A DNA stretch of 20,732 nt, taken from the NCBI GenBank assembly GCA_050175015.1, contig JBFXJJ010000023.1:1-20732 (forward strand). Direction: 5' to 3'. The notes under the pieces were generated by a model. That model was not told the origin of the DNA. It ran no database searches and saw nothing but the letters and a program-made list of their open reading frames with translations. The position numbers were made by a program, and so were the translations under genes. Of the stretch, positions 1 to 5,582 are shown one piece after another; positions within the stretch are counted from its first letter, which is position 1; each line of letters starts with the position of its first letter. Origin of the DNA: Alphaproteobacteria bacterium. GTDB lineage: Bacteria; Pseudomonadota; Alphaproteobacteria; JBFXJJ01.

Positions 1-1849
1 CAACACAGCGGTTGCCCTCCAAAACCGCACAGCCCGTACAAATATTGGCGGCACAGTTGCCAACAAAATTAGGATAAGAGGCACATTCGGTGATGCACCA
101 AGTGTTATCAAAATCCCAGCTGCCAAACGTTGATTGATGCTTCATATCTGCCGTTATCTTGCTGACACCTAAAGCGCTTGAGGATTGTCCTGTCGTCTCG
201 CTGTCATAATAGCTGTTCTCCGCCGTCGAGGTCAGCGCCATTCCAACTAGGCCGCCTACACCAGATGAACCCGAAACCGCACCTTTGGCATAGCTGTTGC
301 TTATCTTGGCATCGTCTCTGGCATAGCCAACCAGACCGCCAACCGCAGAGCCGCTGCCATTAACACTGGAAACCGAAAAACTGTCCGAAATCGCTGAACC
401 GCTGTATAAATAACCTACTAAACCGCCAACATTACTGCCGCCGTTTACCGTTCCCATTGAATAACTCGAACTTAATGTCGAGGTACTGTGCATATTGCCG
501 ACTATTCCGCCAACATACGAAGAACCTGTTACAGGTGATGATGAATAGCTGTTGGAGATGTTAATTTTTGCTCCAGCAGAACCAACGATACCACCAACAA
601 AAACTGTGTCGCTAGCAACACTTCCTGTAGAATAGCTATTCGTTATCGAAGACATTTCACTCATAACTCCAGCTAACCCTCCAGCGTAAGATCCTTTTGC
701 ATAGATATTTGCTGTGGAATAGCTATTGCTTATCGTTGAGCGGCCATCGAGCTGACCAACTAAGCCTCCAACTAAACTGCTGTCATATGGAGACACAAGA
801 TTTGGGGCTCTTATACTGCCAGAAGATGAGCAATTATAAATGGAAGTTTTAGCATGAGCATAAGCTGCAATAGAACCAACTGGGCGTCCACCATTAATGT
901 TGACATTATTCATTTTCACATTCTGAATGGTGGCTCCAATAGTTATTTTAAAAAGCCCAGCCCAGCAATTTGAACAAGTTATTGTAAAGTTATTGATATT
1001 ATAATTTTTGCCATCAAAAAAACCTGTGAAAGCACTAGAAAAAGTATCGCCTATAGGAGAAAAATTGATACCACTGCAATTAATGTCATTTGCTAGTTGA
1101 TAATTGCCAGAAAGGTTGTTTTTCATATTTTGTAACTGAGTGCAATTAGAAATCATATTCCAAGACATAGCGCTGCAAAAGGCAGGATATGAAACATTTT
1201 CTCTAATGCACCATAAACTATTAGCAAAATCCCAGCCCTCAAAAGTAGCTTGTTGTTTTAGCTCGGCGGTAGTTCGTCCTTCACCCAGTGCAGAAGTCGT
1301 TTGTCCTGATGTTTCAGTGTCCCAATAACTATGAACAGCTGTAGAATTATTATAAGTGCCGACTAAACCACCAACATATGCTCCGTCGCCAGAAACTTTG
1401 GCTGTAGAATAACAGTTGATAATATTAGAATCTGTTGCTGCCACAACCAGAGCGGCCGCACTTAAGGTTGAATTAATTTCACCAGAAACATAACAATTGG
1501 AAATTGTTGTACTATATGCATAACCAACTAAGGATGCTCCGTTATTTAAACCTGTAATTTTAGCATTAACAATGCCTAAATTCTTTATTGTCGCCCCTTT
1601 TGTCCTTGTAAAGATGCCTGTTTGCCATAGTTCCATATCATTCATAGTTAAGTTGAAAATACGGTGATTTCTGCCGTCAAGAGTACCTGTAAAAAAGTTT
1701 ATCCCATCACGTGCAAGGGATAAAAAATTGCCATAGGAACTGCAGTCAATATCATTTGCTAAATAATAGCTTCCTGCTAAATTGTTTCCGATGTTGTGTA
1801 GCCCAGCACAGGTTGTAATGGCTGTCTGACTATAACCATAACTAGGATA
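1..1849 (-). CDS. Headless body of secreted GLUG-repeat / Cys-rich surface protein 1 (3' end runs off the window; 5' leader lies inverted at 2322-2393)
   Basis: Absent from the ORF track. I translated it by hand: the frame is stop-free from 1849 to the window edge (616 codons). It reads YPSYGYSQTAITTCAGLHNIGNNLAGSYYLANDIDCS...FTGTLDGRNHRIFNL..., then many (V/A)GG(L/I)VG GLUG-type motifs, YWDTETSGQTTS, GWDF...WCI, and ends NICTGCAVLEGNRCV. The nearest upstream in-frame stop is TAA at 1900-1898, with no ATG/GTG/TTG until an internal ATG at 1645. Confidence 0.9.
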
Positions 1850-1851
1850 TA
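1831..1851. repeat. Left recombination site of switch 1: TATAACC-ATAACTA-GGATATA
   Basis: Imperfect 7-bp dyad arms (6/7) around a 7-bp spacer. The inverted copy is at 2374-2394. Confidence 0.85.
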
Positions 1852-1902
1852 GTCGGTAATATGATATCTTTTGGTAAAAACAGGTCTTAAATAAATATTA
1901 AA

Positions 1903-1915
1903 AATCAATATGTTA
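1903..1915 (+). promoter_or_regulatory. IHF-consensus site (AATCAATATGTTA)
   Basis: Perfect match to WATCAANNNNTTR with an A/T-rich 5' flank. It lies 71 bp from the IR start, the same offset as the site at 5046 in switch 2. Confidence 0.6.
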
Positions 1916-1968
1916 TATGTTTTATAAGTTTTTGTATATGAATTGTTAAAAAGTTTTTTTCTAAAAAT

Positions 1969-1986
1969 GTTACCTATTTGCTACCC
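1969..1986 (+). repeat. GTTACC(C)-type direct repeat pair A, switch 1
   Basis: GTTACCT at 1969 and GCTACCC at 1980, 11-bp period. Confidence 0.65.
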
Positions 1987-2020
1987 TAAAATTTTAAATA
2001 TTTATATAAAAACAATTAAA

Positions 2021-2033
2021 TATCAATATGCTA
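2021..2033 (+). promoter_or_regulatory. IHF-like site (TATCAATATGCTA)
   Basis: One mismatch to WATCAANNNNTTR. Offset 189 from the IR start, identical to the site at 5164 in switch 2. Confidence 0.55.
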
Positions 2034-2076
2034 TATAGAAGATATGGTTGCGCTTATATTATTTATATTGATATAA

Positions 2077-2094
2077 GTTACCCTGATGTTACCC
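2077..2094 (+). repeat. GTTACCC direct repeat pair B, switch 1
   Basis: GTTACCC at 2077 and 2088, 11-bp period. Confidence 0.75.
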
Positions 2095-2250
2095 ATTTAA
2101 AAATTTATATAAAAACATAATAAATTCATATAGTTATTTTGTTGCGTTTTTTTAAAATATTGAAGTTAAAGACTGTTAAAAAATAATAACAAAATAAAGT
2201 AATAAGATTTTTTCTAATATTTACCTGAGATAAACGTAAAGATATTATTC

Positions 2251-2314
2251 TTGCCAACACAGCGAAATAGCTGCAAAATAAATCCAAGTATAATGATGTT
2301 TTTTTAGGAAGGGA
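2251..2314 (+). promoter_or_regulatory. Putative sigma70-type promoter and RBS inside switch 1
   Basis: TTGCCA(2251)-N17-CAAAAT(2274), a further TATAAT at 2289, and RBS AGGAAGGGA at 2306-2314. The same layout is conserved in switch 2. Confidence 0.55.
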
Positions 2315-2321
2315 TATGACT

Positions 2322-4995: not shown

Positions 4996-5045
4996 CCATA
5001 AAAAACAGGGTATTATGCTTTTTTGTTGATTAAAAAAACATTTAA

Positions 5046-5058
5046 AATCAAAGTGTTA
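5046..5058 (+). promoter_or_regulatory. IHF-consensus site (AATCAAAGTGTTA)
   Basis: Perfect WATCAANNNNTTR match, offset 71 from the IR start. Confidence 0.6.
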
Positions 5059-5110
5059 TTTTTTATAACAAAAAATAACAAAAATATTTATGAAAAAAAT
5101 GTTATAAATA

Positions 5111-5128
5111 AATACCCATATGTTACCC
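5111..5128 (+). repeat. GTTACCC-type direct repeat pair A, switch 2
   Basis: AATACCC at 5111 and GTTACCC at 5122, 11-bp period. Confidence 0.65.
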
Positions 5129-5163
5129 AGTTAAAAATGATTTTTTGATAAAAAAACATTTAA

Positions 5164-5176
5164 TATCAGTATGTTA
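5164..5176 (+). promoter_or_regulatory. IHF-like site (TATCAGTATGTTA)
   Basis: One mismatch to consensus, offset 189 from the IR start. Confidence 0.55.
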
Positions 5177-5220
5177 TATTAATATTTAAAGAAGCAAGCA
5201 AGATTATTTATAAATGCACC

Positions 5221-5238
5221 GTTACCCCTTTGTTACCC
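5221..5238 (+). repeat. GTTACCC direct repeat pair B, switch 2
   Basis: GTTACCC at 5221 and 5232, 11-bp period. Confidence 0.75.
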
Positions 5239-5406
5239 ATAACTATAATAAAAAAATAAACACAATAAAAACAATTGGTTAATTATATTTTTTTTGGTGT
5301 TAAATTTTTTAAAAAAATTGTTATCAGGCTTTTTTATCAGTTTTAGAAACAATGGCGTTTGTTGAAAATATATGGTCAATCCTCCAAGATGAAATGTCTT
5401 TTAATC

Positions 5407-5479
5407 TTGCAATACTGTTGAATTTGTATCAGAATAAATTTAATTAAAAACAAAAATATATAATTATTATAGGAAAGGA
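5407..5479 (+). promoter_or_regulatory. Putative sigma70-type promoter and RBS inside switch 2
   Basis: TTGCAA(5407)-N17-CAGAAT(5430), TATAAT at 5459, and RBS AGGAAAGGA at 5471-5479. Confidence 0.55.
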
Positions 5480-5486
5480 CAAGACC

Positions 5487-5582
5487 ATGTTTAGTAAAAT
5501 AAAGTTTATAGGTCTGTTGTTTTTGATAATAACCTTAATATATCCTTATTACAGTTATGATTATATTTGTAAAAAATGTTAA
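5487..5582 (+). CDS. Inverted 5' leader (Sec signal peptide) of GLUG protein 2; OFF-state product is a 31-aa dead-end peptide
   Basis: MFSKIKFIGLLFLIITLIYPYYSY-DYICKKC*, paralogous to leader 1, with a strong RBS. Confidence 0.8.
   Translation: MFSKIKFIGLLFLIITLIYPYYSYDYICKKC
5539..5559. repeat. Right recombination site of switch 2: TATATCC-TTATTAC-AGTTATG
   Basis: Inverted copy of 4974-4994 with an identical spacer. The mismatches are in the outer arm. Confidence 0.85.

Follow-up and report, generated by a model that had tools for sequence, protein, structure and literature searches.

Two surface-protein genes in a 20,732-nt stretch of DNA from an uncultured, soil-type alphaproteobacterium (contig C23 of its genome; the whole stretch is called the window below) each begin inside one of a pair of short inverted sites that bracket a leader cassette. 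The two loci probably belong to a 14-member family of ON/OFF inversion switches, with a tyrosine recombinase acting on sites that share their arms and carry an overlap private to each locus; taken jointly, these elements are the best explanation of the observations reported here. Each switch in the window has one core site next to the gene and one distal to it, all four located by pattern and inverted-repeat searches:

1831 to 1851, plus strand: gene-proximal core of switch 1, TATAACC-ATAACTA-GGATATA.
2374 to 2394, minus strand: distal core of switch 1, GATAACC-ATAACTA-GGATACA.
4974 to 4994, plus strand: gene-proximal core of switch 2, TATAACC-GTAATAA-GGATATA.
5539 to 5559, minus strand: distal core of switch 2, CATAACT-GTAATAA-GGATATA.

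An earlier note on this DNA, made from the letters alone, had described tyrosine-recombinase-like cores with shared arms and locus-specific 7-bp spacers. Its sequences for the two left (gene-proximal) sites are correct, as are the 3/7 spacer positions at which switches 1 and 2 differ, the perfect 7/7 match of each right site to the spacer of its own partner, and the direct-repeat orientation of the left sites at 1831 and 4974. Its statement that the arms are shared holds between the two left sites, which are identical there, but not for the right sites, each of which differs from its left partner at 2 arm positions (counted at the 21-bp level, in both window switches). As inverted repeats, positions 1832–1849 and 2376–2393 are complementary at 18/18 bases (100%) with 526 nt between them, and 4975–4995 and 5538–5558 at 20/21 bases (95%) with 542 nt between. 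Allowing up to 2 mismatches, the core pattern is matched 6 times in the window—the four sites plus two opposite-strand re-matches that arise because the left sites are near-palindromic—against a mean of 0.10 matches in shuffled versions of the window, none of 100 shuffles reaching 6. The left sites of both switches lie inside minus-strand coding sequence, at the very start of two paralogous proteins. This placement, overlooked in the earlier note, means that the arms are partly fixed by YP..GY codons.

We searched the whole genome (2.53 Mb in 49 contigs, 35% GC, rated 99.4% complete) for ATAACC-N7-GGATA, tolerating 2 mismatches at most in the arms, and combined plus- and minus-strand sites lying 300–900 bp apart. 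Among 67 candidate pairs, 13 have 0/7 spacer mismatches, all at a spacing of 544–585 bp; the next-best candidates, with no fewer than 2 spacer mismatches and 5 mismatches overall, are noise-like. The two sites of a 14th pair stand at different contig ends (C21:110-127 and C11:1-19) and both have the spacer TTTATTA; its C11 site opens a 1594-aa Cys-rich gene whose C-terminal tail is common to the family. A GLUG gene lies behind 12 of the 13 complete switches, and each of the 12 gene copies that have the N-terminal domain at their true N-terminus is fronted by a switch.

The genome-wide collection of sites had been proposed in the earlier note as a check on its claim that spacers are unique to a locus and covary within pairs, and the claim survives it: spacers are matched in 14/14 pairs, and all 14 are different. 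Within pairs, spacers differ at 0/98 positions and arms at 16/154 (Fisher p = 3e-4). For recombinases of the lambda-Int family the overlaps of two partner sites must match, and heterologous overlaps block strand exchange; partner identity of this kind is present in every one of the 14 pairs. Because strand exchange needs identical overlaps, partner sites must covary, and covariation is what we see. The 14 loci are clearly paralogous by alignment, so every spacer change must have occurred in both sites of a pair. The C10 and C17 switches illustrate this: they are 90% identical overall, with ~36 differing columns of ~638 between the cores (our own count), and each 18-bp core has a single difference, at the same spacer position. 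The anatomy of the core is equally regular. The outer arm ATAACC and the inner arm ATATCC (read as its reverse complement) are alike at 5/6 positions and form a dyad kept in 28 sites, which is the layout of two inverted arms around a 6–8-bp overlap found in cores of the lambda Int family.

The genes and cassettes of the window are arranged as follows, the extents of the two putative invertible segments being taken from cassette alignment and frame analysis:

2 to 1849, minus strand: gene 1, a leaderless GLUG / M26_N-like Cys-rich surface protein, starting YPSYGYSQTAITTC at the core; its 3' end is off the contig.
2755 to 4992, minus strand: gene 2, also leaderless and GLUG / M26_N-like, with a Cys-rich C-terminal part, starting YPYYGYSQTAITSC at the core.
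1852 to 2373, no strand assigned: putative invertible segment 1, assembled OFF.
4995 to 5538, no strand assigned: putative invertible segment 2, assembled OFF.
2251 to 2279, plus strand: conserved promoter-like block of switch 1, TTGCCA-N17-CAAAAT, aimed at the leader.
5407 to 5435, plus strand: conserved promoter-like block of switch 2, TTGCAA-N17-CAGAAT.
2317 to 2445, plus strand: leader open reading frame (ORF) of switch 1 (..KIKLKALIFLLVIQMYPSYGY), with an ATG at 2317 or 2323; in the OFF state it runs through the distal core and 16 junk codons.
5487 to 5582, plus strand: leader ORF of switch 2, MFSKIKFIGLLFLIITLIYPYYSY, followed in the OFF state by 7 junk codons.

Genes 1 and 2 have stop codons upstream and no signal peptide. 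What they lack is found in the cassette of ~560 bp between each pair of cores: a promoter, a start codon and a signal-peptide-like leader that ends in YPxxGY, in frame with the gene. At 12/12 GLUG loci the leader ORF and the gene use a common YPxx[G/S]Y frame, with upstream stops before the gene, and in the OFF state the leader ORF exits through the right site in that frame and stops a few codons later. Since leader and gene share a frame, inversion would place promoter and start codon ahead of the gene and fuse the leader to it in frame. Each surface-protein gene would on this model have no promoter, start codon or signal peptide of its own and would be supplied with them by the bracketed cassette, the ON state being the fusion of the leader (..YPxx) to the gene (GYSQTAI..). 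All 12 GLUG genes have a leader cassette each, rather than a single expression site of the vsa/vpma type. The spacer contributes the third base of the Pro codon and two variable codons, and TAAC is kept in 14/14 distal outer arms, though it is non-coding there in the ON state.

Across 13 aligned cassettes, the ATG with its ribosome-binding block is conserved, as is a TTGCAA-N17-CAAAAT promoter-like block directed toward the leader. A promoter scan of the region was not above chance (18 found against 16.1 expected), and the promoter call is therefore based on conservation across cassettes instead; an Rfam search gave no match.

Three further observations concern members of the site family. The switch at C21:16223-16795 is complete, with leader, promoter and accessory motifs, but fronts no GLUG gene: its frame ends after 36 codons, and a gene resembling a nucleoside hydrolase begins ~190 bp downstream. 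Either the switch has decayed or it now serves as an invertible promoter. A solitary site at C10:80111-80131 (TATAACC-GTTATTA-GGATAAT), placed in a 20-bp gap between two unrelated ORFs, has the spacer of the C10 switch 6.9 kb away and may be a chance occurrence or a third partner site. Just outside the distal cores of C10, C11, C13, C17, C27 and C21:129-200 lies a conserved block of ~60 bp (..AATAAAAAACACTATTTTACA..) that marks one switch subfamily and may act as a terminator or as one more site for protein binding.

The dyad arms, the odd-length AT-rich centre and the keeping of the arms where they are non-coding all fit a tyrosine recombinase. Most likely the enzyme is of the lambda/P4 Int type; it would occupy both dyad arms, with strand exchange across the 7-bp centre, which we take as the putative crossover position. 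The enzyme classes that the earlier note had set against its own reading, serine and IS110/Piv-type, were not found in the genome. The Resolvase domain PF00239 has 0 matches in this 99.4%-complete genome (a control search with it was positive in 12/14 genomes); for IS110/Piv, PF02371 (Transposase_20) has 0 matches, and PF01548 has one sub-threshold 20-bit match inside a 2367-aa ORF. PF00589 (Phage_integrase), by comparison, gives 17 matches, corresponding to ~15 tyrosine recombinase genes. Judged from sequence, a switch worked by a tyrosine recombinase is well supported: core anatomy, covariation, gene content and attP-like motifs fit what the earlier note had proposed, with the reservation that the arms are also partly constrained by coding.

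Every cassette carries accessory motifs on one side, and in the window these are:

1903 to 1915, plus strand: IHF-consensus-like motif of switch 1, AATCAATATGTTA, at a family-conserved position ~84 bp from the proximal core.
1969 to 1986, minus strand: tandem arm-type-like pair B of switch 1, GGGTAGCaaatAGGTAAC.
2077 to 2094, minus strand: tandem arm-type-like pair A of switch 1, GGGTAACatcaGGGTAAC.
5046 to 5058, plus strand: IHF-consensus-like motif of switch 2, AATCAAAGTGTTA.
5111 to 5128, minus strand: tandem arm-type-like pair B of switch 2, GGGTAACatatGGGTATT.
5221 to 5238, minus strand: tandem arm-type-like pair A of switch 2, GGGTAACaaagGGGTAAC.

In the 13-cassette alignment, two tandem GGGTAAC pairs with an 11-bp phase lie upstream of the promoter-like block, together with three conserved TAACATATTGA blocks, whose reverse complement fits what we take to be the IHF consensus, WATCAANNNNTTR. 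Measured from the proximal core, the IHF-like blocks stand at ~305, 203 and 84 bp and GGGTARC at ~263/252 and ~155 bp. Both motifs are concentrated in the switches: 37/159 genome copies of GGGTARC fall in the 7.6 kb of cassette sequence, and so do 18/420 IHF-consensus matches (2.37 per kb; density over the genome, 0.17 per kb). Tandem pairs at 10–12-bp spacing number 19 in the genome, with ~3.7 expected by chance; 13 are in switches, and 3 lie 36–190 bp upstream of a tyrosine recombinase gene at C1:263738-265012. The genome has 3 genes of the HU/IHF family. We propose that the recombinase would be aided by the tandem GGGTAAC and IHF-like sites, as putative arm-type and IHF sites, on one side of every cassette. 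The accessory sites remain inside the cassette, so both orientations would offer the same substrate, and inversion could be reversible without an extra directionality factor.

The gene at C1:263738-265012 codes for a protein of 424 aa that combines Arm-DNA-bind_3, SAM-like and Phage_integrase domains. Its neighbours are xerD on one side and lptF/lptD on the other, and neither a tRNA nor mobility genes are found nearby. A paralogue of 57% identity, on C4, belongs to a mobilisable island that also contains a relaxase, NikA and toxin–antitoxin genes. No NCBIfam family scores above its cut-off for the C1 protein, and the genome contig collection holds no close relative of it (best matches 33% and 27% identity, over parts). 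Its domains and the motifs at its start suggest a domesticated Int-type recombinase that would use the GGGTAAC motifs as arm-type sites; those at the start of its own gene may serve autoregulation, for which P4 Int is a precedent.

Two other sets of recombinase genes were noted. A 354-aa recombinase encoded 3.7 kb from the C21 switch was set aside as an island integrase, which its two paralogues are also taken to be; it follows tRNA-Leu and precedes mobilisation genes. At C39:138-2086, on a 3.9-kb contig, tyrosine recombinase genes for 332 and 317 aa lie side by side and resemble the paired recombinases of some transposons.

A family of inversion switches with private overlaps has several observations weighing against it, which concern in turn the candidate enzyme, the arms and spacers, the orientation of the cassettes and their absence from relatives. 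The link to the C1 gene is circumstantial, coming from a short motif in common that might just as well be bound by a transcription factor, and the genome is a metagenome-assembled genome, so that the true invertase could be on unbinned DNA. The GGGTAAC and IHF-like motifs would, on one alternative, be promoter-regulatory sites of a transcription factor that also controls the C1 gene, and the invertase would be a simple Fim/Xer-like tyrosine recombinase that needs only the cores, perhaps from among the other ~14 in the genome. The motifs do lie upstream of the cassette promoter, and at the C1 gene they are again upstream, a short way from its start; counted within the window only, IHF-consensus matches (5, with 2.8 expected) do not exceed chance. 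We nevertheless hold this alternative to be unlikely, given that direct repeats phased at 11 bp, interleaved with IHF-like sites and at fixed distances from the core, have the layout of an att arm, and that the tandem motif, where it occurs elsewhere, adjoins a recombinase gene with an arm-binding domain.

As for the cores, Y-P and G-Y are encoded in the arms, and part of the arm conservation is coding constraint. The spacers raise a separate question. Read as address codes, which is plausible, locus-private overlaps would act as heterospecific sites and suppress inter-locus deletions or large inversions, such as a 1831 × 4974 recombination that would delete gene 2. By this analysis private overlaps should make the 14 switches mutually inert, and the accessory sites near one core may add locus specificity through synapsis in cis. 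All-distinct spacers, though, arise in 5.5% of column shuffles, a marginal value, and 12 locus pairs differ by a single spacer base, a difference that may fail to block exchange fully. An alternative keeps the switches and the enzyme class but takes spacer diversity to be no address code. Two weakly constrained codons would then drift, each change reaching the partner site by heteroduplex repair during inversion or through selection for a working switch; what mainly keeps loci from recombining with one another would be the requirement for arm-type and IHF sites close by, which favours synapsis in cis, along with selection against rearrangements that are lethal. Distinctness that is not in strong excess, and so many loci only 1 base apart, speak for drift of this kind, as do the rise of spacer difference as overall cassette identity falls (Spearman −0.30), which drift predicts, and the presence of accessory sites within 84–305 bp of one core at every locus. 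Descent among paralogues, on the other hand, should favour shared spacers beyond what shuffles give, yet the 90%-identical C10 and C17 switches differ. The 3 Asn-Asn loci and the 3 Asn-Tyr loci, too, all have different spacers through synonymous codons, for which a rough estimate with assumed codon usage puts chance at ~0.07. On balance we regard spacer drift as possible but somewhat doubtful.

Returning to private overlaps as a barrier to cross-locus exchange, which the covariation suggests, the fullest form of the mechanism would have the domesticated P4-type integrase of C1, autoregulated through its own arm-type sites, build an attP-like intasome in each of the 14 cassettes and flip each independently, the overlaps being kept distinct by selection against inter-switch rearrangement. 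As a complete chain this is tentative, and we would not expect every link to hold.

In the assembly, 13 cassettes are OFF and one, at the 14th locus, has an ON-type junction. At C21:1-128 a distal-type flank runs into the non-leader end of a cassette, the arrangement of an inverted (ON) switch. In 13/13 comparisons the 100 nt inside this junction match the non-leader end with a higher score than the leader end, and the 100 nt outside it score 38–60.5 against the distal flanks of C10, C11, C13, C17 and C27 and 4–7 against the gene sides of these five. Relative to its flanks, then, the cassette is found among paralogues in either orientation, and the breakpoint falls exactly at the cores. This ON example is a weak one: it lies at a contig end, nothing but the identical site pairs C21 with C11, and the leader half is absent from the assembly. 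The 13/14 cassettes assembled OFF could also mean rare flipping or none.

Source-sample data were available as Logan contigs, which we compared with positions 1–7000. The region is in one run, the probable source, and is almost wholly missing from two further runs of that study. One Logan contig spans 1810–7000 in the assembled orientation with 0 differences, and a contig break at 1810–1838 coincides with a stretch common to the paralogues. No strand-changing joint was seen in the Logan contigs over 1–7000; contigs drop minority forms, so this result neither supports nor refutes flipping, nor does it speak to rare cross-junctions.

The same findings bear on the idea that the repeats are relics that no longer invert, or that the enzyme flipping them is a serine, DEDD or unknown recombinase whose gene is on DNA that the bin lacks. 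The single prevailing orientation (13/14), the absence of an inversion joint from the contigs, and an assembly in 49 contigs with an incomplete 14th cassette would all suit it. Relics would hardly keep 0/98 mismatches in the most variable part of the site, and coordinated change in the duplicates needs ongoing constraint. The odd-length 7-bp centre with dyad arms misfits the 2-bp crossover of serine invertases, and no serine or DEDD gene was found in the 99.4%-complete genome. We consider relic repeats or a foreign invertase class very improbable.

The family's distribution adds a last set of points against functional switches worked by a tyrosine recombinase. The N-terminal domain of the GLUG gene was found in 0/30 relatives; the cassette motif pattern matched 0/400 other genomes of the class, its own genome being the only match; and the junction pattern had 0 matches in the genome contig and metagenome contig collections. 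The nearest species representatives share only the class with this organism, and the chorismate synthase of the window is 66–68% identical to named Alphaproteobacteria and Rhodospirillales proteins and 76% to one ENA protein. The four closest protein homologues, two of them from this genome, start inside or just before the YPxxGY junction and have no leader. ENA protein P0002, from another assembly (49% identity), keeps the junction as YPKYGYAQTAIS with a non-leader N-terminus, so a relative probably has the same kind of junction. For the 14th gene, the protein collection holds no homologue but itself.

Several known systems share parts of this organization. The attP sites of lambda and P4 Int consist of inverted arms around a 7-bp overlap that must match the partner, with phased arm-type repeats interleaved with IHF sites. 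The present loci resemble these intasomes in core layout, in their putative arm-type repeats and IHF-like motifs and in the N-terminal arm-binding domain that Pfam assigns to the C1 candidate; they differ in forming an inversion switch, with the accessory motifs on one side and inside the cassette, and in a candidate gene that is not in a mobile element. Engineered lox and FRT spacer variants have the same arms and different spacers and recombine only with their own kind; the same logic appears to be present here in 14 natural loci.

Global invertases such as Bacteroides fragilis Mpi, Clostridioides difficile RecV and Escherichia coli FimB/FimE (with IHF and Lrp) use one trans-acting recombinase on several dispersed invertible promoters, with host bending proteins at fimS. 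Mpi differs in being a serine recombinase with a shared repeat core, and RecV and Fim in having few targets that do not form a paralogous family with a common arm and a variable centre. The R64 shufflon and its recombinase Rci offer a tyrosine recombinase, a 7-bp spacer, one well and one loosely conserved arm, and a crossover in surface-protein coding sequence; its spacer is common and all its sites cross-recombine, unlike the private spacers here. In the vsa, vsp and vpma systems of Mycoplasma, inversions swap N-termini, one expression cassette being shared by several genes through inter-locus recombination. Because the centres differ between loci here, exchange of the vsa/mba type should be prevented.

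For Ureaplasma mba/UU172, excerpts of PMC3047005 describe an inversion in the 5' coding region that puts a promoter and a signal-peptide part before a surface-protein body, as proposed here, with the difference that one N-terminal cassette serves several partners and not, as here, a private cassette each gene. The closest precedent, described in the same excerpts, is Mycoplasma penetrans mpl, with many surface-protein genes, an invertible element for each and a tyrosine recombinase. There, 12-bp inverted repeats are the inversion sequences, those of 30 genes all differ (citing Horino 2009), and the differences are taken as flexibility of the recombinase MYPE2900. As far as these excerpts (PMC3047005) go, the mpl element is in the promoter region, whereas the loci studied here have a ~560-bp cassette with start codon and signal peptide, a putative crossover inside coding sequence, shared arms around a defined 7-bp variable centre, attP-like accessory motifs and an alphaproteobacterial host. 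Given the mpl precedent, a shared recombinase with locus-specific repeats is not a new idea. For private overlaps as a barrier between natural switches, a literature search found no description, which is no proof of absence from print. What appears new, on the sequences examined, is a common-arm/private-overlap site with clean covariation at 14 loci, together with the start-codon and leader cassette, the attP-like motifs, a stand-alone Int-type candidate and the host lineage.

If the proposed mechanism is true, the genome holds a natural, 14-fold replicated experiment on overlap sequence and partner choice of a tyrosine recombinase, and an intasome of the integrase type reused for gene switching. 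The sites would then be a ready-made orthogonal set for one enzyme, of use in multiplexed DNA memory and genome engineering. Overlaps kept distinct by selection would be a natural counterpart of the engineered lox/FRT spacer variants. An uncultured, deep-branching alphaproteobacterium that varies a large Cys-rich/GLUG surface-protein family would also point to strong surface-directed selection, for example by phages, grazers or a host.

Elsewhere in the genome, C25:1640-3087 has several copies of the palindrome GTTTCGCATGCGAAAC, ~650–790 bp apart. Two other genes of the window deserve mention. The minus-strand gene at 6647–8206 encodes a 519-aa fusion of a phosphotransferase (APH-like) and an AAA_33/zeta-toxin-like kinase and adjoins a universal-stress-protein gene. 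At 19540–20442, also on the minus strand, a 300-aa acidic, secreted-looking protein is built of near-identical repeats of ~46 aa (..ILVDAQKLITDAIDNSMQDT..) that fit no convincing Pfam family.

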